This document shows, in pieces, positions 6,125 through 20,817 of a stretch of 64,000 nt of DNA. The notes beneath the pieces were generated by a model. It did no database searches, was not told the DNA's origin, and saw only the letters and a list, made by a program, of their open reading frames with translations. The DNA is from Candidatus Omnitrophota bacterium (GTDB lineage: Bacteria > Omnitrophota > Gorgyraeia > Tantalellales > Tantalellaceae), in NCBI GenBank assembly GCA_043813915.1, contig JBDRKO010000001.1, positions 64,835-128,834 on the forward strand. Reading direction: 5' to 3'. How positions within the stretch are numbered: position 1 is the first letter of the stretch; each line of letters opens with the position of its first letter. Made by a program: the position numbers and the translations under genes.

Positions 6125-7786
6125 TTATTTTCTGAAATCAAAAAGCGCCTTCTTTTTGTCCCCCTCGGCGGAGGATGTTCTCCCATATACTTCCGCTTTT
6201 TCTTTTGAAACTTTTATTTTGCCCTTCTTCACTGCGCCGTTCTCGGCGCTCCCTTGCCCAGGATAATGCTTATCATACTGAGCCTTAGTGCCCGGGAAAT
6301 TCAGGGTATCCCTGCCGTCCCTTATGATATGCACCGTCACAAAGAAAACGACCTCGGTCTTTTCTTTGTTGTCCTGCTTATATTTAACTAACCCTCCTAC
6401 ATAGGGTATCCACCCCAGAACGTCCCCGAGTATCGGGAACTTATGATCTTCTTTCGACAAGGTTTCCGATATCAGCCCGCCGATAAATATCGTCTCCCCG
6501 TCCCTGACCATGACCTGCGTATCCGCTTCCCGGGACTGATACTGCATCGCCACCGTATTCTGCGAATTGCTCACTTCCAGTTCCGTGAACGCGAGATTAC
6601 TGGATACCTGCGGGTGCAGATCTACCGTGACCTCATTGTTGTCATTGACATGCGGAGTGACCTCCAATATTACCCCTACCTGACGGGGTACGCTCTCGAA
6701 CTCCACGGTCACCAGGGTCCCGGTATCACCTGTTGACTGGCTTTTCTGCAGGAACACATTGTTCACCACGCGTATCACCGCCGCCTGATTGTTGAGAGTG
6801 GTCACCCTGGGGCTCGATAATATCTCGGTATCATCCCGTTCGTCCAGCATTCTAAGAACAGCTGTAAATTGGCTAAAATCAAGCGTCCCGTAGGAAAAGA
6901 TCGAGTTCGCGACCGCGGCCGCCGTAACATCGATACCATCGTCATCACTGTTATAAACCTGCGGAAAATTCGTATCCGCTTGGCCTCTGTTGATCTCGGG
7001 ATAAAATTCGCGTTGCGTACCCGGGAGCCATTTAAATATCCCATTATTCGAGAACGGAAAAGTTACCGGCCTTCTCGCTCCGGCGGCGGAAACTACCGCG
7101 TTCCAATCGACCCCGAACTCATCGGTCTTGTCCAGGGTAACCTCTATGACCTTAGCCTCCAGCATGATCTGCGGTGTCTTTTTGTCTATTCTTCCTACCA
7201 TATCCTTTATACTGCTGATACGGGCGGGGATCGCCGTAACGACTATGGCGTTCGCGCTCGCGAGAAATGTCGCTTTTTCCCCGGCAACAGATACTATGAC
7301 CGAATTTATGGCGTCCAAAAGCTGCTTGATGCTCTGATCTTTTTCCGAAGAACCCTCCTGCACCATATAATTCAGCGGGATGACGACCGTTACCGGCTCT
7401 TCCGTCTGGAGCACATCCTTAGGCATTACCCGTATTATTCCTTCTTCGTCGTCACGGGAATACACATACCCGTAATTCCTGGTCACAATATCCAAAGCGA
7501 CCACCCAGGGTTTGTCTCGGAGCCTCATGGTCACTGCCCCCTCAACCCCCGGGGACGGCACTATATCCACTCCGCTTATTTCGGAAAGGTAATGAAGCAC
7601 CGTCTTAATATCCACATCCTTGAAATTGACGCTTATATTCCCGGACGAGGGAAGCTTTTGGATCATTCCTTCGGCCGCCCCGGGGTTATTCACATCGCCG
7701 AAAAGGTCCGCCGGAGCAAATACCGTAAGCGAGAAGATCACCGCTGTGATCACAGCTACCCCGCACATATTCTTTCTCAGAGTCAT
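6125..7786 (-). CDS. pilQ: type IV pilus secretin PilQ
   Basis: Signal peptide, N0/N1 region, C-terminal secretin domain (SSPRVTTLNNQAAVIRV, ETIFIGGLI, FPILGDVLGWIPYVG). Confidence 0.85.
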   Translation of the reverse strand: MTLRKNMCGVAVITAVIFSLTVFAPADLFGDVNNPGAAEGMIQKLPSSGNISVNFKDVDIKTVLHYLSEISGVDIVPSPGVEGAVTMRLRDKPWVVALDIVTRNYGYVYSRDDEEGIIRVMPKDVLQTEEPVTVVIPLNYMVQEGSSEKDQSIKQLLDAINSVIVSVAGEKATFLASANAIVVTAIPARISSIKDMVGRIDKKTPQIMLEAKVIEVTLDKTDEFGVDWNAVVSAAGARRPVTFPFSNNGIFKWLPGTQREFYPEINRGQADTNFPQVYNSDDDGIDVTAAAVANSIFSYGTLDFSQFTAVLRMLDERDDTEILSSPRVTTLNNQAAVIRVVNNVFLQKSQSTGDTGTLVTVEFESVPRQVGVILEVTPHVNDNNEVTVDLHPQVSSNLAFTELEVSNSQNTVAMQYQSREADTQVMVRDGETIFIGGLISETLSKEDHKFPILGDVLGWIPYVGGLVKYKQDNKEKTEVVFFVTVHIIRDGRDTLNFPGTKAQYDKHYPGQGSAENGAVKKGKIKVSKEKAEVYGRTSSAEGDKKKALFDFRK

Positions 7787-7803
7787 TAAGGTCCTCCTGT
7801 TTT

Positions 7804-8160
7804 CTATTCGTATAATTGTATCTCATGATCCTCTTCCCCGATGCCCATGACCACGGAATTATCCGATATTTTCTTTATGCGGAAATTCTGCGTACCGTAA
7901 CCCTCTTTCATCATCTCGCCGTTTATTATCGCGGTATAGGACCCGTCCGCTCCTTTGATTATTCCCTGCAGGGATACATCGCTAACCGAAAGGATCGCTC
8001 CGCCCTCTACCTGAACGTCAGCGCTCACTCCGACCAAGGGGACGAAAGGATCCCTTTTGACCGAAGCGGCGCGCTCCGCCGGGAACGCGTAAGCCGGAAC
8101 ACATACGGCCGCTAAGAATAATACAGTAAGCTTTATCTTCATGCTATTGACCTGAAACAT
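7804..8160 (-). CDS. pilP: pilus assembly protein PilP-like (secreted, or lipoprotein if the first C after the signal peptide is lipid-modified)
   Basis: Signal peptide MKIKLTVLFLAAVCVPAYA, small beta-rich protein between pilO and pilQ. Confidence 0.5.
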   Translation of the reverse strand: MFQVNSMKIKLTVLFLAAVCVPAYAFPAERAASVKRDPFVPLVGVSADVQVEGGAILSVSDVSLQGIIKGADGSYTAIINGEMMKEGYGTQNFRIKKISDNSVVMGIGEEDHEIQLYE

Positions 8161-8743
8161 ATGTCTTTAGTGTCATGCTAATATCGTGTTGCCTTGGGGA
8201 ACCCTCGTTATACTGTATACGCAAGTCCTCGATCGAAACGAACCTGCTTCCTTTCTCCAGATTGCTTATGAACTGCGCCAGTTGATGATATCCGCTCTTC
8301 GCGGATATCCGGATAGGCATTTCCGCGTAATATATTTTCCCGTCGCTCTCCTGGGCCGACCTAAGTTCCGAAGGTGTTATACTTATGATGTTGACCCCCG
8401 AAACTTTGGCTATCGAGGCCAGTCCCTCAAGGAATTCCGGAATATCTTTCTGACCGGGCAATCCTTCCGAATACCCTTCCAGTTCCGTTTTGATCTTGTC
8501 CAATGCTTCGGTCATCCCGTCAATACGGTTTACCCGTCCGCTGACCGACTCTATTTGCGTTCTCATCTCCGCCGCTTCTTTTCCGGTCTTCAAAAAAAAT
8601 AACGTCCCGGGTATGATGCATGTCATGGCGTAGACCATCCCGGCCAGCGCGATAGCGCCCGCGATGATATACCGCCTCATCCCTTCATCGCTGATAAGCT
8701 CTTTTATTTTCGCCGCGTTAAGGTCTTTTAACTCGATCATTTT
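8144..8743 (-). CDS. pilO: type IV pilus assembly protein PilO
   Basis: Single TM segment plus coiled coil and PilO-like C-terminus; likely start MIELKDLN overlapping pilN stop (ATGA). Confidence 0.7.
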   Translation of the reverse strand, partial: KMIELKDLNAAKIKELISDEGMRRYIIAGAIALAGMVYAMTCIIPGTLFFLKTGKEAAEMRTQIESVSGRVNRIDGMTEALDKIKTELEGYSEGLPGQKDIPEFLEGLASIAKVSGVNIISITPSELRSAQESDGKIYYAEMPIRISAKSGYHQLAQFISNLEKGSRFVSIEDLRIQYNEGSPRQHDISMTLKTYVSGQ

Positions 8744-9399
8744 TTCTTTTTCCCTTCGTCCTGAACACCGGCAGCCATTTCGGATACGTCCGGGGCCAAA
8801 CGGCATTCTAGCATGAATCTCATCGCCTCTTTTCCCGCCACTTCCTGCGCTCTCATATTGTGCAGTTCTATTTCCTTGAACGGTTCAGCAAAATCCGGGT
8901 TATTTTTAAGACTTGTAATGAAACGTGCTACTATGGATGTCGCTTCCTGAGAATTTCCCAATGCGTAACCCGTTATTCCCACGGAAACGGGGAGCTTTTC
9001 CTTTACTCCGCCCTTCGTGTCAGCGTTATCGAATTTGACCTCGAACTCCGAAAGCCACACCTTGGGTATCACAGCATCGTTAAGTCCTCTCAGAAGATCG
9101 CTCCAATCAAGCCCCAATTCGGCTATTCCGCGTATGACCTTTAACCGCTTTTCCGCTTCGCCAGTCTCTCTCGTAAGCTTCCCGATCAGATCTCTCTGCG
9201 GCTGCATCTGGCCCCATTCCAAAGTCAGAACGTCCAGTTCCCCTTTGCTTCTCCCGGACAACAGCACTATCGAAATATGTACTGCCAAAAGCAGCGCGAA
9301 CAGTGCTACGGCTATCCTTACTACGGGAATGTCCGACAGCTCCACTGATATTTTCCTGGTTTTCCTAAGTTCTTTCGGCAGCAGGTTAAGTTCGATCAT
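8737..9399 (-). CDS. pilN: type IV pilus assembly protein PilN
   Basis: MIELNLLPKELRKTRK... typical PilN N-terminus, one TM helix. Confidence 0.7.
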   Translation of the reverse strand: MIELNLLPKELRKTRKISVELSDIPVVRIAVALFALLLAVHISIVLLSGRSKGELDVLTLEWGQMQPQRDLIGKLTRETGEAEKRLKVIRGIAELGLDWSDLLRGLNDAVIPKVWLSEFEVKFDNADTKGGVKEKLPVSVGITGYALGNSQEATSIVARFITSLKNNPDFAEPFKEIELHNMRAQEVAGKEAMRFMLECRLAPDVSEMAAGVQDEGKKKK

Positions 9400-9453
9400 A
9401 GCACAGTAAGACCCTCCGATGAAAAACGTTCATCCTCCCGTATTCTCCGGACT

Positions 9454-10470
9454 TTATGTTCTTAAGGCCAGCCCTATAGCGACAGCCAGCTGCGGTGATA
9501 CCGAAAGTATTTCCTCTTCCGGTATCGTTTCGTCCAATTTTATCCGGCCTATGGGATCCCATCCCTTTATGTCCATTCCAAGTTCTTTGCCTATCAGCGC
9601 TATCTTATCCTTTTGAGATACGGCGCCTCCCGAACAATATATTTTGCTGACACGCTTATTATATCGGTTCTCGAAATACCCGAAAGATAAATGCAGTTCA
9701 TTCACGATCTCCTTGATCACCTGTATCTGGATAGCGCGCACATCGTCTCCCAGGCTTTCATCCGGGACAGATTTGGCCTTTTCCGCTTCATCCTCAGACA
9801 CGGAAAGTTCTCTGGATATCAGATCCGTTATGTTCTTTCCGCCTATCTGTATCTGTCTCATAAAACAGGGCATCCCGTCCGAGAACACCAATACATCGGT
9901 CTGAGAATGCCCGATATTGAGGAACGCGCTTACTTCTTCCGCGGGAAGCTCATGCGACCGGATGAACGCGTTGTACACGGCGAACGGAGCGATGTCCAGG
10001 ATATTGATGCCGATACCCAATTCGGAGAGCAGGCGGATACGCGCATCGACCAATTCCCTTTTCGCGGCCGCAAGCAGTACCTTCATCTGTCCATGTTCCT
10101 GGATCTCCCCGATTATTATGGAATCCAGCACCACCTCATTCACGCTGAACGGGATATATTTTTCCGCTTCATAGACCAAGGCGCTCTCAAGCTGATCTTT
10201 CTTCATTTTGGGAAGGTTCACGAACCTGACGATCACATCCGGCCCCGAAAGAGACAGATTTACCTCGGAGGGCGAAAGCTCCGCCCCCTTCAAAAGCTCC
10301 TTTATCGCTTTTTTAAGCTCGGTCTCTTTAATGTTCCAGGGAACACTCTTAATATTGTACGCACGGAGGGTCTGGGTCTCTGCTCTTTTTTCCAAAGACA
10401 CGACCTTGAGGGAATAGCTTCCTATATCCAGGCCTACGGTCTCATTGGTTATTCTTTTATTTTTTGCCAT
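9454..10470 (-). CDS. pilM: type IV pilus assembly ATPase-like protein PilM
   Basis: Actin-like fold, VGLDIGSYSLKVV N-terminus, length 338 aa. Confidence 0.85.
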   Translation of the reverse strand: MAKNKRITNETVGLDIGSYSLKVVSLEKRAETQTLRAYNIKSVPWNIKETELKKAIKELLKGAELSPSEVNLSLSGPDVIVRFVNLPKMKKDQLESALVYEAEKYIPFSVNEVVLDSIIIGEIQEHGQMKVLLAAAKRELVDARIRLLSELGIGINILDIAPFAVYNAFIRSHELPAEEVSAFLNIGHSQTDVLVFSDGMPCFMRQIQIGGKNITDLISRELSVSEDEAEKAKSVPDESLGDDVRAIQIQVIKEIVNELHLSFGYFENRYNKRVSKIYCSGGAVSQKDKIALIGKELGMDIKGWDPIGRIKLDETIPEEEILSVSPQLAVAIGLALRT

Positions 10471-10590
10471 TACATGGGAAAAGCCGGTGCACGTCCATTC
10501 TCTCCTGGACTCATCGTATTATTATAATATCTCTATAGGAGAGGTTATCATACACATTTCCTATTGTCAAGACATGCCGCGCCGGGACGG

Positions 10591-10917
10591 TCATTCCAGA
10601 CGATGCCCTTCTGCCGTGCAGGCAGGATATGATTCGGTATCCCCTATGCTGTAAGTCCCTCCCGCCGGACATGACGGCTGGCTTTGAAGATATGCCGGCA
10701 CAAGATCATCCCAGCCGGGAGCGCCTGTCGCGACGGTCCCGGACTCGATCGCCCAGATCTCTTTAGCGTTATCAATACCCTTGAGATTTGACAGACATGA
10801 GTATAAATGCGTCCTTTCCCTGGATCTCTTAAAATTGGGTATCGCGACCGCTAACATCACGCCGAGTATCGACACGACTATCATTATTTCTACTAGTGTA
10901 AACCCTTTTTTTCTCAA
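10591..10917 (-). CDS. type IV pilin / GspG-like pseudopilin (TTG start)
   Basis: MRKKG|FTLVEIMIVVSILGV prepilin motif; SCLSNLKGIDNA PVC-type motif; own TTGATT-N16-TATACT promoter and AGGAGG RBS. Confidence 0.7.
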   Translation of the reverse strand: MRKKGFTLVEIMIVVSILGVMLAVAIPNFKRSRERTHLYSCLSNLKGIDNAKEIWAIESGTVATGAPGWDDLVPAYLQSQPSCPAGGTYSIGDTESYPACTAEGHRLE

Positions 10918-11002
10918 GCACCCCTCCTAAGTTCTTTACCCTGAAGTATACATTGTTTTTACGAGTAATCAAACTCCCACATAAATAAAATAAAAAAATA
11001 AA

Positions 11003-11044
11003 AAAAAAATAAAAAAAAGGGAACGGCCGTTAACGACCGTTCCC
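11003..11044 (-). terminator. rho-independent terminator downstream of second pilin gene
   Basis: GGGAACGGCCGT-TAA-CGACCGTTCCC hairpin followed on the minus strand by a >15 nt U tract. Confidence 0.6.
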
Positions 11045-11067
11045 TTTTCAGCTCAAAACCGTACGTG

Positions 11068-11397
11068 TTACTGGAGCTTATGTCCGGCAGTGCTGCATGT
11101 AGGTCTCGTTCCTGAAATATCATATGTGCCCTTAGCCGGACATGCCGGAGTGGCTTTCAGATAATCCGGGGAAAGAGCTGCGAGCGTGGCGGGGTTAGCC
11201 CCCGTATCCAGGTTATAAAGCACCATCGCCCCTTCTATCTGCTTCAGGTTGGATATACATGCATTTTTTTGAGCACTTTCTCTGGCTTTCACAAAGTTCG
11301 GTATGGCTATAGCAGCCAATAAACCTATAATTGCGACTACGATCATAATTTCGACCAATGTGAAACCCTTTTTACCCAATAATTTCTGCATTTTCAT
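11068..11397 (-). CDS. pilA: type IV pilin / GspG-like pseudopilin, probable major pilin
   Basis: MKMQKLLGKKG|FTLVEIMIVVAIIGLLAAIAIPNF; ACISNLKQIEGA motif; strong SD AAGGAGGTG 7 nt upstream; own promoter and strong terminator. Confidence 0.75.
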   Translation of the reverse strand: MKMQKLLGKKGFTLVEIMIVVAIIGLLAAIAIPNFVKARESAQKNACISNLKQIEGAMVLYNLDTGANPATLAALSPDYLKATPACPAKGTYDISGTRPTCSTAGHKLQ

Positions 11398-11445
11398 TGT
11401 TCTCACCTCCTTTCTTTTTTTAAACACCTATAACCTGAGTATACC

Positions 11446-11512: not shown

Positions 11513-12730
11513 CTAGAAACTGACGCTAGAGCTCATCTTGAATATCGGCAGGAACATACATATGACTATACCGCCTATCACTATACCCAGAAAGGCTATA
11601 ACCAAGGGTTCGATAAGACTGGTAAGCCCGTCGACAGTTGAATCAACCTGTTCGTCATAGAAATCCGCTATTTTCTCCAGCATCATCTCCAGTTCACCGC
11701 TTTTTTCCCCTACCGCGATCATCCGGGTCACAAGAGGCGGGAAAATACCGCTTTTTTCCATAGGCAATGCGATACTCTCTCCTCCTCTTACGCTTTCTTT
11801 GACCTGATATACGGTTTTTTCCACCACTAAATTGCCGGAAGTCTTCGCCACGATATCGAGTGCTCCTAGTATGGGAACGCCGCTTTTTACCAAGGTGCCC
11901 AGCGTGCGGGTAAATTTACTTATCGCCACCTTGCTGAACAAAGTCCCGAATACGGGCAAACGAAGCTTTATCCCGTCTATCGCGTACTTTCCGTTCTCGG
12001 TCCTCATATACGCCTTTAACGCCACGACCGCCAAGGCGATCAGCACCATCAGCGTCACGAAATTGCTCCTGGTCCAGTTGCTCAGCGCTATAAGGAACTG
12101 CGTCGGCTTTGGAAGGTCCGCCCCTAGTCCCGAGAACATATCCTCGAACACCGGGATGACCTTGATTATCATAACGAGAGTTATCACGACCGCCATAGCG
12201 CTTACAACAGCCGGATATATCATTGCGGAACCCAATTTTTTCTGGAGAGCGCTTGTCTTTTCAAGATGCATCGCTACCCTATCAAGGACCTCTTCCAGCA
12301 TACCGCTGGATTCTCCTGCCTTTATCATGTTTATAAAGTAGGATGAGAACATCGCGGAATATTTCCCCATCGCTTCCGACAAACTGGCCCCGGTATTAAC
12401 GGCGCTGTACACATCCTTGAGCACTCTTTTCATCCGCGGATTATCCACTTGGGCCGCGAGCGTGTCAAGGGATTCTATTATCGTTATCCCGGCACCCGTC
12501 ATAGTTGCCATCTGCCTGGAAAATATCACCAGTTCTTCCAAAGGGACTTTTCCCGAGGTATTTTTAGAGGAAGGGAAAAAGGTTTTTTTTTCTTTTTTCT
12601 TCTCTATCTTAAGTACAAGCAGCTCTTTTCCTCGCAGCATTTCCAAAGCATGCGGCTGATCCAGCGCCTGGACCTCCCCGTTTACGGTCTGTCCGTCCTT
12701 GTTCTTTGCTGTATAGATAAAATCCGACAT
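11513..12730 (-). CDS. pilC: type IV pilus platform protein PilC (GspF family)
   Basis: Two GspF repeats, 405 aa, polytopic membrane protein. Confidence 0.85.
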   Translation of the reverse strand: MSDFIYTAKNKDGQTVNGEVQALDQPHALEMLRGKELLVLKIEKKKEKKTFFPSSKNTSGKVPLEELVIFSRQMATMTGAGITIIESLDTLAAQVDNPRMKRVLKDVYSAVNTGASLSEAMGKYSAMFSSYFINMIKAGESSGMLEEVLDRVAMHLEKTSALQKKLGSAMIYPAVVSAMAVVITLVMIIKVIPVFEDMFSGLGADLPKPTQFLIALSNWTRSNFVTLMVLIALAVVALKAYMRTENGKYAIDGIKLRLPVFGTLFSKVAISKFTRTLGTLVKSGVPILGALDIVAKTSGNLVVEKTVYQVKESVRGGESIALPMEKSGIFPPLVTRMIAVGEKSGELEMMLEKIADFYDEQVDSTVDGLTSLIEPLVIAFLGIVIGGIVICMFLPIFKMSSSVSF

Positions 12731-12743
12731 TTTTCCTTATCCG

Positions 12744-14456
12744 TTATGTTACCCTCATTACTTCCTCTAATGTGGTCCACCCCTTGATGAACTTTATCAT
12801 AGCGTTGTCCCTCAGTGTATTGACCTTCTTCTCCCTAAGATATTTTTTTATATTTTCCTCGGACTCCCTGCGGTTTATCATCGCCCGAATATCATCATCT
12901 ATGAGAAGCGTCTCCAGCGTCCCCAACCGCCCGCTATAACCTGTGCCGTTACACCTCTTACACCCCGTTGCGGCGAAAAACTCTTTTGTCTCCCGGGCTT
13001 CGGGGTATTTCTCCATGATCTCCTTCAAGAGTTTCTCCGGTATCTTGGTCTCCGTCTTGCAGCTCGGGCAGAGCTTCCTCAAAAGACGCTGAGCGCATGC
13101 CATGATAAGGCTTGAAGCGATAAGAAAAGGTTCTATACCCATATTTACCAGACGTGTTATCGCCCCCACAGAGTCATTGGTATGGAGCGTGCTTAGGACC
13201 AGCTGTCCCGTTAGAGAGGCCTTTGTCGCTATATCCGCGGTTTCAAGGTCCCGTATCTCACCGATCATTATCACGTCCGGGCTCTGCCTCAGTATCGCCC
13301 TCAACCCGCCTGTAAAATCCAGCCCGATCTCCGGGCGCGCGGCTATCTGAGTGATACCTCCGACCTGATATTCTACGGGATCCTCTACCGTAAGGATGTT
13401 CTTCTCCGGCGTATTCATCTCATTGAGTATGGAATACAATGTAGTTGATTTCCCGCTCCCCGTAGGTCCGGTAACGAGTATTATCCCGAACGGCTTTAAC
13501 AAGGCTTCCCTGAAATCAGCGAGCGGTCCGGGAAGGAACCCAAGGGTCTCAAGCCCCACGGAAAGATTGCTCCTGTCCAGAGCCCTGAGCACTATCTTAT
13601 TACCGAAACTCGTCGGCAGGGACGATACGCGGAAATCCACTTCCTTCTTGTCCGTCTTTATGCGGAACCTTCCGTCCTGAGGCACCCGGGTCTCCGTAAT
13701 ATCCAGATTGGACATTATCTTAAGACGCGCGAGTATAGCGTTCTGGTTCTTTTTAGGAAGATCGAACACATCCTGTAACTGCCCGTCCACTCGGTACCTT
13801 ATGCGCAGATTTTTTTCCTGCGGTTCGATATGTATGTCACTGGCCCGTTTTTTCAGCGCTTCAGAGATGATCAGGTCCACCATTTTTATTATGGGCGCCG
13901 CCTTGCTCTCTTTTGCTATTTCGTTCATGTCGGCGTCATCGCCGCGCGACAGGAACTCGACATCCGAATCGCCGCGTTCCTCCTCCTCGTCTATCATTTC
14001 GGTGAGATTATCCTCTTCTGACCTGTAAAAATTATTCAGGGCTTCCTGTATGTCTTTGCGGGTAGACAGAACGAGTTTCACATTGCAGCCGGAAATGGTC
14101 TTTATATCGTCGATCGCGAGAACATCCGCGGGATTAGCGACAACCAAAGTGATGTCGTTCCCTATTTTAGAAAGAGGCACAACCAGATGCCTCCTGAGAA
14201 GTTTTTCCGGTATAGAACCCACGATATCGGGATCCATTGACATTCTCGACACATCGATAAAAGGAACACCCATAACGCGGCTGACGACGGTCAAAAGTTC
14301 TTGGTCCGATATCATCCCGCTTTCCGTGAACATGTTTATAATGTCCCCGTCGGTCTCTTCCTGAAGGTTCTTAAGCATACCCTCGATGCGGTCCCTTTCG
14401 ACAAGACCGTTATCCAGAAGCTCTTTTAGTATCTTTTCCCTAAGGGATACTTCCAT
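12744..14456 (-). CDS. pilB: type IV pilus/T2SS assembly ATPase PilB/GspE paralogue 1
   Basis: GspE_N domain, Walker A GPTGSGKSTT, Asp/His boxes, tetracysteine CPSC...CKRC. Confidence 0.85.
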   Translation of the reverse strand: MEVSLREKILKELLDNGLVERDRIEGMLKNLQEETDGDIINMFTESGMISDQELLTVVSRVMGVPFIDVSRMSMDPDIVGSIPEKLLRRHLVVPLSKIGNDITLVVANPADVLAIDDIKTISGCNVKLVLSTRKDIQEALNNFYRSEEDNLTEMIDEEEERGDSDVEFLSRGDDADMNEIAKESKAAPIIKMVDLIISEALKKRASDIHIEPQEKNLRIRYRVDGQLQDVFDLPKKNQNAILARLKIMSNLDITETRVPQDGRFRIKTDKKEVDFRVSSLPTSFGNKIVLRALDRSNLSVGLETLGFLPGPLADFREALLKPFGIILVTGPTGSGKSTTLYSILNEMNTPEKNILTVEDPVEYQVGGITQIAARPEIGLDFTGGLRAILRQSPDVIMIGEIRDLETADIATKASLTGQLVLSTLHTNDSVGAITRLVNMGIEPFLIASSLIMACAQRLLRKLCPSCKTETKIPEKLLKEIMEKYPEARETKEFFAATGCKRCNGTGYSGRLGTLETLLIDDDIRAMINRRESEENIKKYLREKKVNTLRDNAMIKFIKGWTTLEEVMRVT

Positions 14457-14466
14457 CCCTCCCCCT

Positions 14467-16194
14467 TCACTGCGCTGTTTCCCTGTCCGCTGTCGTCACT
14501 CTCAATACTTCTTCCAACGATGTCTTTCCTTCCAACACGTTCTCTATCCCGTTCTCCCTCAGTGTTACCATGCCTTCTTTTCTCGCTACGCTCTCTATCT
14601 CGGCTTCTTGGGCCTTTTCAAAGATCAACTTTTTTATTTCCGGTGAAAGTTTCATACACTCTATTATCCCTATACGGCCAAGATATCCGGTATTAGAACA
14701 GCGTTTGCATCCTTTGGGCCGGCAGATTCTGACCTTCTTTCCGTCTTTACCGAAAAGCCTGAACTTCCCGGCAATATCATCCGTCGGCTCATATGCTTCT
14801 TTGCAGTCGCTGCAGAGTTGACGGATCAGCCTCTGCGCGGCCACCAGTTCTACGGAGGCCGCTATAAGGAATGGGTCGATCCCCATATTCGTCATCCTTA
14901 TTATGGAACCGGCGGCGGTATTGGTATGGAGCGTACTGAGCACCAAGTGCCCTGTAAGCGCCGATTTTATAGCGACATCAAGCGTGTCATAATCCCTTAT
15001 CTCCCCGACCATGATTATGTCGGGGTCCTGCCGCAAGATAGATCTTAACGTGCTGGCGAACGTAAGCCCCACTTCCTCGTTGACCGCTACTTGGTTCAGC
15101 CCTTTCATTTCGTATTCGACCGGATCCTCTACGGTTATTATGTTCTTTTTCGGATCGTCCACATGGCACATCGCGGCGTATAGAGTGGTCGTCTTTCCGC
15201 ACCCGGTAGGTCCGCAGATGAGGATCATACCGTGAGGTTTTTCGCTAGCTTCCTTTATCCTCGCGCTGTCCCGATCTTTCAAGCCCAGCCTATCGAGATC
15301 TATGACCGCCTGTTCTTTGTCCAGGATTCGCAAGGCGACCTTTTCCCCGAAACTGGACGGGACAGTAGATATACGAAAATCCACTTTCCTGTCCTCTATC
15401 TTTATCCGGAACCGTCCGTCCTGAGGCAAGCGTCTCTCGGTAATATCCAGACCGGACATGACCTTAAGCCGGGAAACTAACGCCTGGTGGAATTTGCGGG
15501 GGGGACTGTAACTTACGTGAAGCATACCGTCGACCCGGTATCTTATACGCGATTCGTTCTCCATGGGTTCGATGAGAATATCGCTTGCCCTTTCTTTGAC
15601 CGCCCGCCCGAGTATCATGTTGGTGAGCTTGACGACCGGCGCCTCTTCGGTTATGCGCAGAAGGTCTCCCGAAGAAAGGTTCTCATCTTCCTCTTTCACC
15701 ATCTCCATTTTCGCGCTCTCGATGTCATCTGCTATAGTAGATATCTCCTCATCCGCGGATCTTTCATGATATTTTCGTATGGCATCCTGCATATCGTCTT
15801 CCGCGACAATAACGGGACTTATGTGCATGTTCGTAACGGCCTTCAGGTCGTCCAAAGCCATTATGTTCAGAGGATCCACCATCGCCACGGTAAGCTGATC
15901 AGCCGTGTGCGATATCGGCAGTATTTGATACGCGATGGATATCTTTTTCGGAATGATCTTCAGGGTATCTTCATCGATATGGAAGCTTGAAAGTTTCATC
16001 GGGGGAAACCCGAGTTCCTCGCTTACGGAGGTCATTATGTCATCTTTTGAAATGAGGTTCATCCCAACGAGCGTTTCGCTGAGGCTCCCCCCCTTCTTGG
16101 AACATATCTCCCATGCTTTGCGGAGATCATTTTCGGTCACCAGTTTTTTTTTGACCAGGAATTCACAGATCCTCTTAGTAAGCGACAATGCCAT
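14467..16194 (-). CDS. PilB/GspE-family ATPase paralogue 2
   Basis: Same architecture, Walker A GPTGCGKTTT, CSDC...CKRC; N-terminal MshEN-like motifs degenerate. Confidence 0.85.
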   Translation of the reverse strand: MALSLTKRICEFLVKKKLVTENDLRKAWEICSKKGGSLSETLVGMNLISKDDIMTSVSEELGFPPMKLSSFHIDEDTLKIIPKKISIAYQILPISHTADQLTVAMVDPLNIMALDDLKAVTNMHISPVIVAEDDMQDAIRKYHERSADEEISTIADDIESAKMEMVKEEDENLSSGDLLRITEEAPVVKLTNMILGRAVKERASDILIEPMENESRIRYRVDGMLHVSYSPPRKFHQALVSRLKVMSGLDITERRLPQDGRFRIKIEDRKVDFRISTVPSSFGEKVALRILDKEQAVIDLDRLGLKDRDSARIKEASEKPHGMILICGPTGCGKTTTLYAAMCHVDDPKKNIITVEDPVEYEMKGLNQVAVNEEVGLTFASTLRSILRQDPDIIMVGEIRDYDTLDVAIKSALTGHLVLSTLHTNTAAGSIIRMTNMGIDPFLIAASVELVAAQRLIRQLCSDCKEAYEPTDDIAGKFRLFGKDGKKVRICRPKGCKRCSNTGYLGRIGIIECMKLSPEIKKLIFEKAQEAEIESVARKEGMVTLRENGIENVLEGKTSLEEVLRVTTADRETAQ

Positions 16195-16221: not shown

Positions 16222-16683
16222 TTATTGATATAGCTTATTCAAAGCGTCCTGTATCGACGTAACCGTCGAAATAAAAACCTGGATCTTTTTCTTGGTTATC
16301 ATCTCTATGTCCTCAATAGCTTTGGTGTTCAGAGGGTTGGACATAGCAACGCTCAAGATGTTGCCCATTATATCCAGAGGGACTATGCTGTACTGCCGCG
16401 CCACATTTTCAGGCACTATCCTGACGATCTGCTTCTTCAGCTCGTAATTCTCCAACGGCAGATACGGGAACCCGTACTGTACGGTCAGCGCCTGCACAAT
16501 ATCCCGTTCTTTTACATATCCCAATTTGACCAGTATCTCCCCTATGAGACCTCCCTCTCTTGTTTGATAATCAAGAGCTCTCTGAAGCTGGTCTTCCGAA
16601 AGGACCCCCGTTGAGATAAGGATGTCCCCGAGCTTTTTCCTTTCTTTGGAACCGTCAAAATTCATATTGCCACCGTCTCCCAA
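16222..16683 (-). CDS. stand-alone GspE_N/MshEN-type domain protein, predicted c-di-GMP receptor
   Basis: Two consecutive 24-residue MshEN motifs KLGDILISTGVLSEDQLQRALDYQ-TREGG-LIGEILVKLGYVKERDIVQALTVQ; 153 aa, no ATPase domain. Confidence 0.7.
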   Translation of the reverse strand: MGDGGNMNFDGSKERKKLGDILISTGVLSEDQLQRALDYQTREGGLIGEILVKLGYVKERDIVQALTVQYGFPYLPLENYELKKQIVRIVPENVARQYSIVPLDIMGNILSVAMSNPLNTKAIEDIEMITKKKIQVFISTVTSIQDALNKLYQ

Positions 16684-16686
16684 TGA

Positions 16687-17748
16687 TCATGAAATAAGTT
16701 TGGACAGCTCTTCCACGTCCGACGATCTTCCTATGGCCTCTTCCGCGCTTATCTCGCCTTTTTCATAAAGCTCCGCTAAAGCCTGGTTCATGGTCTTCAT
16801 CCCGCTCTTCTGCGACGTCTGTATAACGGAATATATCTGATGCTCCTTACCGTCCCTTATCAGGCTGCGTATCGCCGGGTTAGCGACCAGTATCTCCGAA
16901 GCCAGGACTCTGCCTTTACCGTTCTTTCTTGGAACGAGCTGCTGCGATATGATTCCCGAAAGCACAAAAGACAGCTGTGCTCTGATCTGTTTCTGCTGAT
17001 GCGCCGGAAAAACATCCACTATACGGTTTATGGTCTGTGTACTGTCCGAAGTATGAAGCGTCCCCAGGACAAGATGCCCCGTATCCGCTATTATCATAGC
17101 CTGCTGAATGGTATCCACGTCCCTGAGCTCTCCTATCAGTATAACATCCGGGTCCTGCCTCAATACATGCACCAGCGCGTTCGTAAAAGAATGCGTATCC
17201 TCCAGCAGCTGGCGCTGGTCGACTATGGCCATATTGTTATCGTGAACGAACTCTATCGGGTCTTCGACGGTTACGATATGACAATCCCTTGTCCGGTTTA
17301 TCTCATCCACGATCGCCGCCAGTGTAGTGGATTTACCGCTTCCCGTCGCTCCCGTCACAAGAACGAGCCCTTTAAGCATTTCGCAGAATTTCCCGACAAC
17401 TTTTTCGGGCAAGCCGCATTCCGATATCCCTTTTATGGAAAGAGGTATAAGTCTTATCGCGCATCCTATTTCGCCCCGCTGCAGGAAGATATTTCCTCTG
17501 TACCTGGCTACCCCTTCTATGGAAAGCGAGAAATCCAGTTCTTTATCCTTCTCGAATCTCTCCAATTGTTCCGGCGTAAGAAGGCTGTGTATAATGTCTC
17601 TTGCTTCATCTCCCGACAGGGCCTTTCCTTCTATTTCCACCAGGCGTCCGTCAATACGATAGTGCATAGGGGAGTTCACCCCTATATGCATATCCGACGC
17701 GTCGTTCGCCGGCATCGCGGACAGCAGTTTGCGGATATCATCTCTCAT
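16687..17748 (-). CDS. pilT: twitching motility retraction ATPase PilT
   Basis: 353 aa, Walker A GATGSGKSTT, PilT-type Asp/His boxes. Confidence 0.85.
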   Translation of the reverse strand: MRDDIRKLLSAMPANDASDMHIGVNSPMHYRIDGRLVEIEGKALSGDEARDIIHSLLTPEQLERFEKDKELDFSLSIEGVARYRGNIFLQRGEIGCAIRLIPLSIKGISECGLPEKVVGKFCEMLKGLVLVTGATGSGKSTTLAAIVDEINRTRDCHIVTVEDPIEFVHDNNMAIVDQRQLLEDTHSFTNALVHVLRQDPDVILIGELRDVDTIQQAMIIADTGHLVLGTLHTSDSTQTINRIVDVFPAHQQKQIRAQLSFVLSGIISQQLVPRKNGKGRVLASEILVANPAIRSLIRDGKEHQIYSVIQTSQKSGMKTMNQALAELYEKGEISAEEAIGRSSDVEELSKLIS

Positions 17749-17778: not shown

Positions 17779-18639
17779 TTATTCCCCGTTTACCCTGTTC
17801 TTGCCGCTCTTTTTAGCTTTGTCCAGATATCTCTTCGCGCTGAAAACCACCTCTTTGACATCCGACCCGTCTATCGGGTTCTCCCCTACACCGAGGCTCA
17901 CGGTGATACGGGTACCCGAAATATCCATCTGTTCCACGCGTTTCCGTATGTCCTCCGCGGTCTCCAACGCTTCGCGTTTATTCCTTTCGGGAAGCAACAT
18001 GCCGAATTCATCCGAAGATGTCCGCGCGAGCGTCCCTACGGGCGGAACTATACCGCTCAAGAGGTTCGCTACCGACTTAAGGGCCTTCTCTGCCATCTCC
18101 GGACCGTGAGTATTCGAATATTTTTTGCAGTCATCGATGTTCAGTATTATGAGAGAACACGGTCTCTGAAAATACTGCGCCCGTTTGAGTTCTTCTCCCA
18201 TACACTCCTCCATATGCGAAAAAGTATAAAGCCCGGTAAGCCTGTCTATAACGTCCTTGCTGCCTCTTTTTTCTTCTTGCATCCGTATCTTGGCTACCAT
18301 TTCGTTCACGCCGTTGGCTATATCTCCGAGTTCATCCTCGCGGCGCAGGGTTATATTCGCATCATACCTTCCCCCCGCTATTTTTTTTACTTCGTTCGCC
18401 ATATCCACAAGAGGCAGGACTATGGTCCTTGCCAGAAGATACCCCATCCAAGATACCCATAACGAGAATATGACTATTATGGACACTTGGAGCATTTCAC
18501 GTTCCATCTCGCGAAATATATAGTTCGTAACGAAATACGCCATGCTCAAGAGAGGGATTATGGACATCAGAGAGAACGCAATAAGCAGTTTCTGCTTTAC
18601 GCTTCTTCTTTCAAGCGACATATTTTTGGCTAAGCCCAT
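17779..18639 (-). CDS. membrane HAMP-GGDEF protein with degenerate active site (SSDEF)
   Basis: Two TM helices, HAMP, then GGDEF fold (DRLTGLYTF...NIDDCKKYSNTHG...RTSSDEFGMLL) with GG replaced by SS and no RxxD I-site. Confidence 0.75.
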   Translation of the reverse strand: MGLAKNMSLERRSVKQKLLIAFSLMSIIPLLSMAYFVTNYIFREMEREMLQVSIIVIFSLWVSWMGYLLARTIVLPLVDMANEVKKIAGGRYDANITLRREDELGDIANGVNEMVAKIRMQEEKRGSKDVIDRLTGLYTFSHMEECMGEELKRAQYFQRPCSLIILNIDDCKKYSNTHGPEMAEKALKSVANLLSGIVPPVGTLARTSSDEFGMLLPERNKREALETAEDIRKRVEQMDISGTRITVSLGVGENPIDGSDVKEVVFSAKRYLDKAKKSGKNRVNGE

Positions 18640-18749: not shown

Positions 18750-20498
18750 TTACATGTTGAACCCTGTTTCTTTGAACTCTTTAACCAGCCATTCTTTTTT
18801 CACGCCTATGTCTATATGGTCCCAAGGCAGTATATCGTCCGTTCTGAATCTCTTCTCGGCGCATCCCCTCATATCGAGGCCTTCCGACCGAAAGGCTTCA
18901 TCCCATATTCCGGCGTTAAAAAATTCCGTCCAACCGTCCATTTTAGCCCCGTTCTTCCACGCGGCGTGGATAACGCGGGAGGTCTTTCTGTTCCCCCTTG
19001 CCATGGCCGCTTCCAATATGGACTGCCGGATACCGCTGAACTCGACCTTTATTTTTCTGGTGTTTCCCCTCATAAGCTCTCTCCGGCTCTCTCCCAGGCT
19101 TTCTTCGTTCTTCATCCCGAGCCATTGCATAGCGGTATGCGCCTTGGGCACGAAGGCGTTCACGCTGACCTTTACCTCGGCGCTCGATGACGAGATATCC
19201 TTCTTTAGTCCCGATAGTGTTCTCGCCAATTCAAGTATTTTCCGGGCTTCGTCCGTTCCGCTCCCCGGAAAACCTACCATGAAATACAGTTTTATCTTCT
19301 GCCACCCGTGCCGGAAAGCTTCTTGGGCTGATCTGCAGAGAACGGTCGGATCTATCTCCTTGGCCAAAGCTCTGCGGATCTCGGGATCCGGAGATTCTAC
19401 GGCAAAGGTCAACCCGGCTTTTCTTACGGCGGCTATCATTTCCGGAATAGCGTAGAAGGCTTTGTCTATCCTTAGAGAGGGAATAGATAGACCCACGCCT
19501 TTTCCCTTGAACTCTTCCGCTAACATTTCCACTAATTCCGCTAAACGCGGGTAGTTCACGCTGGAAAGAGAAAGAAGCGCTATCCTCTCATACCCTGTAT
19601 TAGCGTAAGTCTTGCGGCAGATATCAACTATTTTTTTTGGAGAACGCAGACGTACGGGACGGTTTATTGTCGAGGCCTGGCAGAAACGGCAACTGTTAGG
19701 ACAGCCCCTCATTATTTCTACCGCCATTCTGTCATGCACGGTCTGTACCAGGGGCACCAGCTGTCTGACCGGATAATACGCGTTCTCCATGCTTTCTACA
19801 AAGCTCCGTTCTACTTCCCGAGGAACACCGCTCTCAACGGGCCTTACGCCTTTATATTCCGATCCGGCATATGTCTCTTCATAGAACCGCGGCACATATA
19901 CGCCCTTTATTTTGGAAAGATCTTTCAACACGTCCCGTCTTTTTTTCCCGGTTTTCTTTGCCTCGGCATAGGCTCTGATAAGTTCCGGCAGCGCCTCTTC
20001 TCCGTCACCGATGACCATCGCGTCAAGGAAAAGGCTCATCGGTTCGGGATTACTGCAGCACGCGCCGCCCGCGATAACTATAGGCTCATCCTCCCCTCGA
20101 TCGGAAGAAAGGATATTTATCCCTCCCAGATGGAGTATGTTAAGGACATTCGTATACGTAAGTTCATAAGACAGCGAGAACCCCACGATATCGAACTCAT
20201 TGGCGGGTCTTTTTGTTTCTAGGCTGAAAAGACGCATCCCGCCGGCCTTGAGTTCTTCTTCCATATCCGGCCATGGCGCGAACATTCTTTCGCATACGGC
20301 GCTCGCCATATCATTGACCAGATGATAAAGCACCTTCAGACCGAGATAGCTCATGCCCACTTCGTATGTGTCGGGATAAGAAAGCAGGACCGACGTCATC
20401 CCCGGGCCGTGTTCTTTCCGGACACTGTTCGTCTCGCATCCTATATACCTGCCGGGTTTCCGGACTCTGGTAAGCATGTCTTTCAGTTTGTCATTCAT
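18750..20498 (-). CDS. TIGR03960-family B12-binding-like radical SAM protein
   Basis: KPGRYIGCETNSV...PDTYEVGMSYLGLKVLY...GFSLSYELTYTNVLNIL...CPNSCRFCQ; true start MNDKLKD, upstream ORF extension runs into the repeat region. Confidence 0.8.
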   Translation of the reverse strand: MNDKLKDMLTRVRKPGRYIGCETNSVRKEHGPGMTSVLLSYPDTYEVGMSYLGLKVLYHLVNDMASAVCERMFAPWPDMEEELKAGGMRLFSLETKRPANEFDIVGFSLSYELTYTNVLNILHLGGINILSSDRGEDEPIVIAGGACCSNPEPMSLFLDAMVIGDGEEALPELIRAYAEAKKTGKKRRDVLKDLSKIKGVYVPRFYEETYAGSEYKGVRPVESGVPREVERSFVESMENAYYPVRQLVPLVQTVHDRMAVEIMRGCPNSCRFCQASTINRPVRLRSPKKIVDICRKTYANTGYERIALLSLSSVNYPRLAELVEMLAEEFKGKGVGLSIPSLRIDKAFYAIPEMIAAVRKAGLTFAVESPDPEIRRALAKEIDPTVLCRSAQEAFRHGWQKIKLYFMVGFPGSGTDEARKILELARTLSGLKKDISSSSAEVKVSVNAFVPKAHTAMQWLGMKNEESLGESRRELMRGNTRKIKVEFSGIRQSILEAAMARGNRKTSRVIHAAWKNGAKMDGWTEFFNAGIWDEAFRSEGLDMRGCAEKRFRTDDILPWDHIDIGVKKEWLVKEFKETGFNM

Positions 20499-20817
20499 GA
20501 GTTCCTTGTGGTGCTTGGTAATAAAAATAGCATAGGGCAAAGCGCATAGAGCACAGCATATAGGTTTGTCGGGTTTGTGGAGTTTGTAGAGTTTATTGGG
20601 TCGTATTGACCGATGCCCCATTCGTGACTCGTGATCCGTGATTCGTGATTCGTTCACTACTTTTTGACACTCTGACACTTTGACACTCTGACTCTTTCTC
20701 TACCCTCGCGCTTCTCCTTCCGCTACGAACTATTTAACCTTTAAAACTTTTTAACTTTTCAAACTGCTCTCTCTCTGACCTCTGTCTTCTGACTTCTGTC
20801 TTCTGATTTCTGATCCC
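20499..20817. repeat. modular interspersed intergenic repeat, copy A
   Basis: Modules GCATAGGGCA..GCATAGAGCACAG, GTATTGACCGATGC, (CGTGAYTCGTGA)n, (TGACACTY)n, CTACGAACTAT, (TCTGTCTTCTGACTTC)n are shared with 42060-42605, 45053-45163 and 57217-57536. Confidence 0.55.

Follow-up and report, generated by a model that had tools for sequence, protein, structure and literature searches.

On a modest balance of probability, the free-standing MshEN protein described here senses c-di-GMP for the type IVa pilus machine of Omnitrophota. Its gene lies in a window of 64 kb (the whole stretch of DNA that was analysed), in which the mechanically called ORF (16222-16683, minus strand) runs to a TTG at 16683 and gives the 153-aa protein of the first-pass annotation. 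That ORF exists, but the protein is probably 147 aa long and the gene confined to 16222..16665 on the same strand. The ATG at 16665 (MNFDG...) has a purine-rich stretch (GGGAG/GGTGG) upstream of it in the window sequence, and the homologues, with lengths of 145-150 aa, begin at the same point; this ATG is therefore a likelier start codon than the listed TTG.

The only Pfam family detected in the protein is MshEN (PF05157; E = 1.8e-19, 69.9 bits against a cut-off of 23.1), and the match spans residues 70-153 of the 153-aa form. Neither a T2SSE ATPase domain (PF00437) nor a PilZ domain (RxxxR, DxSxxG) was found in the Pfam scan, and the protein ends at residue 147, which agrees with its original description as a bare GspE_N/MshEN domain; its resemblance to PilZ-type single-domain adaptors is one of function only. 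Sequence matches in the PDB are the N-domains of MshE, PilF and PilB, with phmmer E-values of 2.4e-15 to 5HTL and 1.6e-26 to a PilB N-domain. A first AF2 run with 26 close homologues gave a pLDDT of 57, with the C-terminal half below 50, and was discarded; with 83 more diverse sequences, the pLDDT was 92.4 and the pTM 0.82. The model consists of four helices followed by a beta-alpha-beta subdomain, and its best Foldseek match is 5HTL, the structure of MshE with c-di-GMP (TM 0.82/0.86, rmsd 2.1 A, 139 columns), while 8PDK is matched at TM 0.75/0.79 (range about 0.75-0.80). The profile search and structure prediction proposed in the first-pass annotation thus both lead to MshEN. Within the model, the C-terminal subdomain (MshEN_C, T2SSE_N1 or N1E-like alpha/beta; 16225..16476, minus strand, from PF05157 and the AF2 model) has the strands and helices typical of N1E, and in Foldseek it matches the EpsE N1 domain of the EpsE-EpsL and GspE-GspL complexes 2BH1 and 4PHT. 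It contains the segments PENVARQY and MSNPLN, which are invariant or near-invariant across homologues, and is the probable protein-docking half.

[quoted passage not shown] The motifs were located with a regex scan and an ungapped alignment to MshE (R9-Q32 for motif I), the spacer was read from the sequence, and a relaxed MshEN motif has only these two matches in the six frames of the window. In the alignment, R9/L10/G11/G18/L25/L29/Q32 of MshE motif I correspond to K/L/G/G/L/L/Q, and L39/G40/G47/L54/L58/Q61 of motif II correspond to I/G/G/I/L/Q. As a correction to the first-pass annotation, motif II starts with Leu-Ile-Gly instead of the canonical Arg-Leu-Gly of Wang 2016; the deviations from the MshEN consensus are Lys (motif I) and Leu (motif II) at position 1, and Ile for Leu at positions 2 and 17 of motif II. 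[quoted passage not shown] For MshEN domains, KD values for c-di-GMP of about 14 nM to 0.5 uM have been reported, and in MshE the substitution G11L abolishes binding and G40I weakens it 72-fold (Wang 2016, PMC5013675).

A relative of the protein is encoded in 268 GTDB species genomes, and in the best 80 of these L2, G3, L6 and Q24 of motif I and G3, I17 and Q24 of motif II are invariant. In the same 80 of 268 species, L17 of motif I and L6 and L21 of motif II are kept in at least 78, G10 of motif II in 79 and the GG of the spacer in 78-79, so that Gly3, Gln24 and the hydrophobic cluster, c-di-GMP contacts of the kind that the first-pass annotation proposed to check, are invariant or near-invariant. 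Gly10 of motif I is variable (G in 45 of these 80), and position 1 of motif I, a Lys in the window protein, is mostly Gln in the family (43 of the 80); Gln at this position is allowed neither in the published relaxed set [RKPN] nor in the extended (R/K/L) consensus (PMC11731258). Conservation of the motifs is no proof of binding, since restoring the consensus in the GSPII-A domain of PilF did not restore binding, the pocket being blocked by an N-capped helix extension and inter-subdomain contacts (PMC12002112). In the present model, which as a static structure does not capture helix dynamics and is of low confidence at residues 1-6, helix 1 starts at residue 12 and there is no extended capped turn. 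G5-S6-K7-E8-R9-K10 depart from the N'-Ncap-N1-N4 rules, which call for a hydrophobic N' and an acidic or amide N3, in having Gly at N' and Arg at N3. Sequence and model together support a complete domain with a putatively intact ligand site, for which c-di-GMP binding is predicted.

Downstream of the stand-alone gene, co-oriented with it and a few bases apart, are two PilB extension-ATPase paralogues, PilB2 (575 aa; 14467..16194, minus strand) and PilB1 (570 aa; 12744..14456, minus strand), each with an MshEN domain and a T2SSE ATPase domain (PF05157 and PF00437) and each with degenerate motifs. The two are 40% identical to each other, and Walker A of PilB1 is intact. Aligned to the stand-alone protein, PilB2 has Cys and Ser in place of Gly3 of motifs I and II, Lys and Asn in place of Gly10, and Cys and Glu in place of Gln24; PilB1 has Leu and Ile in place of Gly3 and, in motif II, Val in place of Gln24. 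Among orthologues, position 3 of motif I is never Gly, either in PilB2 (n=66) or in PilB1 (n=61), where it is L/I/T/V, and position 3 of motif II is Ser in 54 of the 66 PilB2 sequences. Because Gly3 is absent from motif I and mostly lost from motif II, the N-domains of both paralogues are predicted not to bind c-di-GMP. The motif decay originally described for both PilB N-domains is borne out by these alignments and counts, including the loss of G3 in PilB1; the further statement that Q24 is missing from PilB1 is only partly right, as a Gln still follows motif I, off register by one residue.

The same fold survives in the neighbouring PilBs without the ligand residues, so their conservation in the stand-alone protein is not a folding requirement; that Gly3 and Gln24 are invariant in this protein while the paralogous domains in the same genomes lose exactly these residues argues for selection on the ligand site. 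The stand-alone trait, the intact site and the degenerate PilB sites are all conserved across at least 80 Omnitrophota species.

The stand-alone MshEN gene is genuine, translated on its own and subject to strong purifying selection. The protein has 987 homologues, the best 120 of which are all single-domain proteins of 141-215 aa with 52-89% identity, and the mean identity to the window protein is 63% for the stand-alone MshEN, 60% for PilB2, 58% for PilB1 and 57% for PilC. The best 80 of the 268 species include the complete genome of Ca. Velamenicoccus archaeovorus and are labelled as Omnitrophota or else as Planctomycetia or Deltaproteobacteria, labels that we take to be naming or binning errors. 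Among ATPase-less representatives of at most 200 aa in a library of 1.84 billion proteins, only those with checked context were used, and not the raw counts; at least one such short representative (P0239, marked 'partial') is a contig-end fragment of GspE. Family members are labelled 'hypothetical protein' or, wrongly, 'PilB' (at JGI, 'type IV pilus assembly protein PilB').

Pfam assignments and coordinates agree with the placement originally given for the gene, between pilT and two full-length pilB paralogues. Immediately upstream is the PilT-type retraction ATPase (353 aa; 16687..17748, minus strand), which has PF00437 without an MshEN domain and whose stop codon is 21 nt before the MshEN ATG. 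Upstream of pilT, a membrane HAMP-GGDEF protein (17779..18639, minus strand) is encoded by the first gene of the conserved block GGDEF-(pilT)-mshEN-pilB-pilB-pilC. PilC, the platform protein (11513..12730, minus strand; two Pfam T2SSF domains), is part of the conserved synteny, and the rest of the type IVa pilus cluster (6125..11427, minus strand, from ORFs and Pfam) has the same order in related loci: two pilins (11068-11427 and 10591-10917), PilM (9454-10470), PilN (8737-9399), PilO (8144-8806), a small ORF between PilO and PilQ (7804-8160) and the PilQ secretin (6125-7786), all on the minus strand. No c-di-GMP riboswitch or other RNA was found in an Rfam scan of the window, and promoter and terminator counts in the window equal the shuffled expectation, the sole notable element being a hairpin after a pilin gene. 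One cluster elsewhere has a second stand-alone MshEN on the far side of the PilB pair.

Essentially every locus has the adjacency MshEN-PilB-PilB-PilC (median gap about 13 nt), which is retained even in a divergent class where the GGDEF and pilT neighbours are missing. Most Omnitrophota, though not all, have pilT in the cluster, and a whole subclade lacks it there. Because this subclade and the divergent class keep MshEN with no pilT in the cluster, PilT is unlikely to be an obligatory partner of the stand-alone protein, and PilB or the PilM/PilC platform is a plausible one. Rate covariation (mirror-tree) gives partial r values of 0.60 and 0.41 with the PilB N-domains and -0.21 with PilM; the signal towards PilB is a weak hint and may reflect homologous domains that evolve at similarly fast rates.

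For the sensor we infer a trans-acting mechanism. The N-terminal four-helix bundle would bind one c-di-GMP, probably tightly because I-1 and II-1 are Lys and Leu, the pair found in PilF GSPII-B, which binds at 6 nM. Once loaded with ligand, the protein would join the motor non-covalently, via its N1E-like C-terminal subdomain and/or the helical bundle, with the N-terminal MshEN domains of PilB2 and PilB1 as the most likely contact. Through such a contact, the tandem array of GSPII domains present in cis in Thermus PilF would be reassembled in trans, and extension of the pilus would become coupled to the level of c-di-GMP, with one diffusible sensor serving two ligand-blind motors. In this coupling, c-di-GMP could either activate or inhibit extension.

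A competing proposal, rather unlikely in our assessment, is that the free MshEN mimics the N-terminal docking domain of PilB and competes for its site on PilM, PilN or PilC, as GspE N1 sits on GspL, so that it inhibits extension or selects the ATPase that engages, with c-di-GMP setting its affinity. It would fit the homology of the C-subdomain to the EpsE/GspE N1 domains seen bound to EpsL/GspL (2BH1, 4PHT), the presence of PENVARQY and NP(L)N-type surface motifs in the PilB N-domains as well, and the position of the gene, in the window, between the retraction ATPase and the extension ATPases. However, the tight and probably translationally coupled place before pilB suggests co-production in fixed proportion and not a regulated antagonist, the rate covariation with PilM is negative (weak evidence), and none of the known small PilB inhibitors reviewed (CpiA, phage proteins) mimics the PilB N-domain.

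A more speculative version of the sensor reading, which we consider unlikely, is that the MshEN sensor was split off in evolution and that the diffusible, c-di-GMP-loaded N-domain acts as a selector. As such, it would permit either of the two ligand-blind PilBs to engage the PilC/PilM platform, or bridge both into a mixed motor, with the degenerate GGDEF membrane protein as an anchor at the pilus base. If this were true, the second-messenger level would set the choice between pilus functions, such as host or prey attachment as opposed to motility or uptake, in the largely host-dependent Omnitrophota.

The GGDEF neighbour was also considered as a local source of c-di-GMP in this lineage and was rejected because its active site is degenerate: the signature reads SSDEF, and alignment to the diguanylate cyclase 5EUH gives the changes GG to SS, D to N, ND to SN, GH to GP and GD to AE. 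Among 66 orthologues, seven have GGDEF, two AGDEF and one SGDEF, and the rest are degenerate. No other c-di-GMP enzyme was found in a Pfam scan of the other large ORFs of the 64-kb window, which are housekeeping genes only (dcw cluster, ileS, aroA and others), and no PilZ or EAL domain was found by Pfam in the pilus cluster.

It is nevertheless conceivable, if improbable, that the stand-alone MshEN works mainly with this HAMP-GGDEF protein as a membrane-tethered local module, ancestrally a cyclase-receptor pair like DgcJ-NfrB and in most lineages now a dead scaffold that places the sensor at the pilus base. A GGDEF gene stands in front of the block in the large majority of loci, the retention of GGDEF, AGDEF or SGDEF in about 10 of the 66 orthologues would fit such an ancestry, and direct contact between a diguanylate cyclase and an MshEN protein has a precedent in E. 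coli DgcJ-NfrB (PMC8669469); one relative has a HAMP-GAF-GGDEF protein and another a REC-HD-GYP protein beside the MshEN gene. However, the GGDEF gene is missing from the cluster both in the divergent class that keeps MshEN-PilB-PilB-PilC and in some other loci (L037, L038), and its product is less well conserved than any other member of the block (about 39% identity), with no RxxD I-site at the expected position.

It is very doubtful that the protein is a nucleotide-independent structural accessory of the PilB ring, or a sensor of another cyclic dinucleotide such as 3'3'-cGAMP. This reading could draw on the insufficiency of the motif for binding in PilF GSPII-A (PMC12002112), on the Gln at I-1 in most family members and, for another ligand, on the statement of Wang 2016 (PMC5013675) that MshEN can also bind cGAMP. 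Against it are the invariance of Gly3 and Gln24 in both motifs in the best 80 of 268 species, set beside their loss from paralogous domains of the same genomes, the Lys/Leu combination of a 6 nM c-di-GMP binder in the window protein, and the misfit of residues 5-10 to the N-cap motif. The probability that the ORF is only the N-terminal piece left from a pilB gene that was frame-shifted or split, which the first-pass annotation had already thought unlikely, or is joined to PilB2 by read-through, is negligible: the two are in the same frame in the window, 27 nt apart, and the JGI name of the homologues would suit a fragment, but both downstream PilBs are full length with MshEN domains of their own, only 26-27% identical to the stand-alone protein, its length of 145-150 aa, stop codon and position are conserved (length and stop in at least 80 species), and across 65 loci its reading frame bears a random relation to that of pilB2 (24/22/19).

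The MshEN/N1 domain of pilus extension ATPases was called poorly understood in a 2024 review, being badly resolved in full-length structures and having effects on ATPase activity that are inconsistent between species (PMC11656802). A binding copy of 147 aa that is separate from ligand-blind motors would make it possible to examine cleanly which partners c-di-GMP-bound MshEN contacts and what effect it has, with sensor and motor open to independent purification, mutation and titration. The type IVa pilus is present in nearly all Omnitrophota and is thought to mediate host or prey attachment (PMC10066038); the sensor proposed here would be the first concrete link of c-di-GMP signalling to it, and a correct family label would improve censuses of c-di-GMP receptors in uncultivated phyla.

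The first-pass annotation had called the arrangement uncharacterised for type IV pili. A literature search brought up no characterised stand-alone MshEN protein that serves the motor of a type IV pilus and nothing on MshEN in Omnitrophota, so the claim stands to that extent; however, c-di-GMP input in trans is known from FimX-PilZ-PilB, and an ATPase-less MshEN from Pseudomonas aeruginosa PA3740. Like the window protein, PA3740 has an MshEN module but no T2SSE ATPase domain (Wang 2016, Supplementary Table 4), and it is listed as experimentally characterised for c-di-GMP binding and implicated in swarming (Wang 2016, PMC5013675), but it has an extra, highly diverged T2SSE_N1 domain and is not described as part of a pil operon by Wang 2016. 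The other ATPase-less architectures in that listing have MshEN(_N) fused to REC, CheX, glycosyltransferase, HD-GYP and similar domains, and a plain MshEN beside ligand-blind PilBs is not among them. The 'MshEN-encoding pilB fragment' of Paenibacillus was rejected as an analogue, as it is a truncated remnant.

In E. coli NfrB-DgcJ (PMC8669469), an MshEN receptor is paired with a specific GGDEF protein, much as a GGDEF gene opens the block here, but the MshEN of NfrB is fused to a glycosyltransferase and DgcJ is active, whereas both the GGDEF protein of the window and most of its orthologues are degenerate. The FimX-PilZ-PilB system of Xanthomonas and Pseudomonas (PMC8389850) is similar in that a non-binding PilB N-domain is signalled by a separate receptor docked there, and this N-domain (7LKM/7LKO) is a structural neighbour of the window protein in Foldseek; it differs in that the degenerate EAL domain of FimX acts as the receptor, with a PilZ-family adaptor as the bridge and no MshEN-type site involved. 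Vibrio cholerae MshE (5HTL; PMC5013675) shares the two-subdomain fold and the tandem 24-residue motifs with a five-residue spacer, aligns without gaps, and has all of its hydrophobic-cluster, Gly and Gln ligand positions conserved in the window protein. However, overall identity is about 29%, motif II starts with Leu instead of Arg in the window protein, and MshEN is the N-terminus of a T2SSE ATPase in MshE and the whole protein here. Thermus thermophilus PilF (8PDK; PMC11731258) has in GSPII-B the same Lys at I-1 and Leu at II-1 (L196), with a motif II that is one residue shorter, and it is likewise a motor with both binding and non-binding GSPII domains. In PilF, however, the ATPase carries its three GSPII domains fused in cis, whereas here the copy predicted to be binding-competent is a separate polypeptide and the predicted non-binding copies are carried by two PilB paralogues.

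The stand-alone MshEN gene occupies an ORF on the minus strand (16222-16683) whose mechanical start, a TTG, gives 153 aa. The ORF proposed in the first-pass annotation is real, but its length is probably not: an ATG at 16665, six codons past the TTG, has a purine-rich GGGAGACGGTGG upstream, and since homologues are 145-150 aa long with starts equivalent to this position, the protein is most likely 147 aa, with the N-terminus MNFDGSKERKKLGD. The gene belongs to an operon-like minus-strand run that opens with a HAMP-GGDEF membrane protein (17779-18639) and continues with pilT (ending at 16687), mshEN, the PilB paralogues pilB2 (14467-16194, start at 16194) and pilB1 (12744-14456), pilC, two pilins and pilM/N/O/-/Q, in that order. 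No convincing terminators were found between the genes of the run in a consensus-level scan. The one strong hairpin in the pilus block (11014-11049, minus strand; 16 bp, GC-rich, with a T-run) directly follows the first pilin gene (11068-11427), which fits high pilin expression, terminated separately. Almost all large genes in the window lie on the minus strand (the dcw cluster, ileS, lgt, aroA, mreBCD-pbp2-rodA, the pilus block, RNase G, rplU and obg). A further prepilin-type protein with an N_methyl motif is encoded downstream of RNase G (3572-4036, minus strand), and two ORFs beside it (3058-3555 and 2137-3042, minus strand) have no Pfam match; these may encode minor pilins or proteins linked to the pilus, at a distance from the main cluster.

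The description of the protein as a bare MshEN domain is borne out by Pfam, in which PF05157 is the only family matched, well over threshold, with no ATPase domain. The best matches in a PDB sequence search are MshEN/GSPII domains, from Thermus PilF, full-length PilB chains (which we take to be Geobacter PilBs), a M. xanthus PilB model and V. cholerae MshE (5HTL, E 2.4e-15). The alignment to MshE residues 5-66 is gap-free. In motif I, K11/L12/G13, G20, L27, L31 and Q34 (numbered from the ATG) correspond to MshE R9/L10/G11, G18, L25, L29 and Q32, and in motif II, I41/G42, G49, I56, L60 and Q63 correspond to L39/G40, G47, L54, L58 and Q61. In MshE, these residues build two triangular hydrophobic clusters and hydrogen-bond the Hoogsteen edges of guanine through backbone amides, with the glutamines contacting ribose and phosphate (Wang 2016, PMC5013675). 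AF2 modelled the protein poorly from 26 close homologues but well from 83 more diverse sequences, with pLDDT 92.4 and pTM 0.82. In the PDB, the structure closest to this second model is MshE with c-di-GMP (TM 0.82/0.86, rmsd 2.1 A over 139 columns), followed by GSPII domains of PilF, the PilB N-domain of X. citri complexed with PilZ, and XpsE-N. Taken by itself, the C-terminal subdomain resembles the EpsE/GspE N1 domain, as in EpsL/GspL complexes. The HMM and structure comparison with MshEN suggested at first pass thus agrees in family, fold and c-di-GMP contact positions. A relaxed MshEN pattern, run over six frames of the 64-kb window, matches only the two motifs of this protein.

Both c-di-GMP motifs are present as originally described, except that motif II begins Leu-Ile-Gly instead of the canonical Arg-Leu-Gly, the sole deviation. 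The position-1 arginine of MshE only stacks on guanine, and its mutation changes affinity less than five-fold (Wang 2016, PMC5013675). Thermus PilF GSPII-B has the identical pair of Lys at I-1 and Leu at II-1 and a KD of 6 nM for c-di-GMP; its K167R mutant binds more weakly and K167L at 2 nM, and the consensus was widened to (R/K/L)LG (PMC11731258). By analogy, the deviation argues for tight c-di-GMP binding, not against it. Two caveats apply. Of 80 orthologues, 43 have Gln at position 1 of motif I, a residue outside this consensus. In PilF GSPII-A, moreover, a sound motif is obstructed by an N-capped helix 1 extension and inter-subdomain contacts (PMC12002112); here, residues 5-10 (G-S-K-E-R-K) depart from N-cap rules and helix 1 starts at residue 12 in the static AF2 model.

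The motifs in the two PilB N-domains are a different matter. In the window PilB2, Gly3 is replaced by Cys/Ser, Gly10 by Lys/Asn and Gln24 by Cys/Glu (motif I/II), and in PilB1, Gly3 is replaced by Leu/Ile and Gln24 of motif II by Val. The decay reported earlier therefore holds for PilB2 and for Gly3 of PilB1, but Q24 of PilB1 is not simply missing, as a Gln is retained one residue off register past motif I. Gly is found at motif I Gly3 in none of 66 PilB2 orthologues (C/T/Q/S and others) and none of 61 PilB1 orthologues (L/I/T/V), and 54 of the 66 PilB2 sequences have Ser at Gly3 of motif II. In MshE, G11L abolishes detectable binding and G40I causes a 72-fold loss, and XpsE, with comparable substitutions, does not bind (Wang 2016, PMC5013675). 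Both PilB N-domains are thus predicted to be ligand-blind throughout the phylum. The stand-alone protein never departs from Gly3 and Gln24 in either motif (n=80), and because the PilB N-domains still match PF05157, keeping the fold without these residues, such strict conservation is best explained by selection on the ligand site. The PilBs themselves are tandem and full-length, share 40% identity and each retain Walker A and tetracysteine motifs, and the pair (12744-16194, minus strand) is kept across the phylum.

A protein search returned 987 relatives, and the best 120 of these are all single-domain, 141-215 aa long and 52-89% identical. Those with a named source belong to Candidatus Omnitrophota or candidate genera filed there by the genome scan (e.g. 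Ca. Tantalella remota), and several others carry the wrong JGI label 'type IV pilus assembly protein PilB'. When GTDB was scanned with one genome per species, 268 genomes had a relative. The best 80 of these are all Omnitrophota, if the Planctomycetia or Deltaproteobacteria labels on some are taken as erroneous, and include the nearest, Ca. Aadella gelida (93%), and Ca. Velamenicoccus archaeovorus LiM, whose genome is complete. Mapping genes by BLAST in 86 loci gave the order (rodA-radical SAM-)GGDEF-(pilT)-mshEN-pilB2-pilB1-pilC nearly throughout, with an mshEN-pilB2 gap of usually 0-30 nt. Read-through or a recent frameshift is ruled out because the mshEN/pilB2 frame relation is random across loci (24/22/19). 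Mean identity is 63% for stand-alone MshEN, 65% for PilT, 60% for PilB2, 58% for PilB1 and 57% for PilC, so that its conservation is on par with the ATPases. Identity to the neighbouring PilB N-domains is just 26-27%, which points to an old, separate lineage of the domain; together with the random frame and the single-domain length kept in homologues, this upholds the view that the gene is not a pilB fragment.

Several loci depart from the common order. The block lacks pilT in a subclade including Ca. Velamenicoccus archaeovorus LiM (related loci L048, L049, L057-L062, L065, L069-L071, L074 and others), where the GGDEF gene is directly 5' of mshEN. In a divergent class whose versions are 182 aa long, the order is mshEN-pilB-pilB-pilC-pilS-pilR, with neither GGDEF nor pilT. 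On the contig of homologue P0197, two stand-alone MshEN genes flank the PilB pair, the second between pilB1 and pilC, and an Auribacterota contig (L090) has two in tandem (269-805 and 1308-1841). Six homologues of 204-215 aa (P0001, P0104, P0111, P0131, P0154, P0161) have an extra N-terminal four-helix MshEN_N module before the full MshEN, and would have two potential c-di-GMP sites per small protein. In an unclassified 'bacterium', the MshEN protein P0234 (L089, 8001-8465) is encoded apart from any pilus genes, with ndk on one side and, on the other, the gene of a protein that has the Rex-type Pfam domains Put_DNA-bind_N and CoA_binding; ATPase-less MshEN proteins therefore also exist outside pilus operons.

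The upstream HAMP-GGDEF protein has SSDEF as its active-site motif, and in an alignment to a solved cyclase domain several metal- and GTP-binding residues are also gone. Among 66 orthologues, GGDEF occurs in 7, AGDEF in 2 and SGDEF in 1, the others being highly variable there, and an RxxD I-site is absent from the expected position. Because of this degeneracy, it is not credible as a local c-di-GMP source in this lineage. At 286 aa, the window version is shortened at its N-terminus, most orthologues having about 470 aa; the short form is otherwise seen only in L007 and L030. Since the gene stays in place while its GG(D/E)EF positions drift, a non-catalytic role is suggested; the protein could serve as a scaffold or be left over from a local c-di-GMP module like DgcJ-NfrB (PMC8669469). 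A radical-SAM protein with a Radical_SAM_N2/B12-binding-like N-terminus (18750-20678, minus strand) lies between rodA and the GGDEF gene, as in most related loci, with no obvious tie to either. Relatives have other c-di-GMP links, HAMP-GAF-GGDEF and REC-HD-GYP; in one Omnitrophota locus (L088, 10001-11624), mshEN is followed by a REC-HD-GYP (phosphodiesterase-type) gene. The remainder of the window is housekeeping genes, and the whole 64 kb has zero Rfam matches at gathering threshold, and so no riboswitch of any described family.

The cluster combines a separate, conserved, intact MshEN module with two motors whose own modules are lost. The free protein would bind c-di-GMP and, through protein-protein interaction, relay its ligand state to the machinery that extends the pilus. 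The PilB N-domains are the favoured partner because a position next to the PilB pair is the one feature that never varies, because PilF and other (MshEN)2-4-T2SSE proteins carry tandem GSPII arrays in cis (Wang 2016, PMC5013675), and because a weak rate-covariation signal agrees. Two alternatives are live: tethering of free MshEN by the GGDEF protein, whose gene is retained in most loci and lacking in the divergent class, and a decoy role at the PilM/PilC platform. From the precedents of MshE and PilF, c-di-GMP might be expected to promote extension, adhesion and twitching.

MshEN is an established c-di-GMP receptor. The many architectures listed for it include PA3740, which lacks the ATPase, but none is a plain MshEN encoded within a pil operon (Wang 2016, PMC5013675). 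The main Omnitrophota genomics paper covers type IVa pili and does not discuss c-di-GMP, PilB or PilT (PMC10066038). The MshEN biochemistry is predictable; the split arrangement is a natural tool for studying PilB N-domain function, testable with recombinant proteins. The first-pass view that such an arrangement is uncharacterised for type IV pili stands insofar as a stand-alone MshEN partner is absent from the PilB cofactors in a 2024 review (PMC11656802), but c-di-GMP input in trans to a non-binding PilB N-domain is already established for FimX-PilZ-PilB (PMC8389850). The Omnitrophota system is thus a known sensor domain in a split arrangement, presumably acting in trans, that is a hallmark of the whole phylum.
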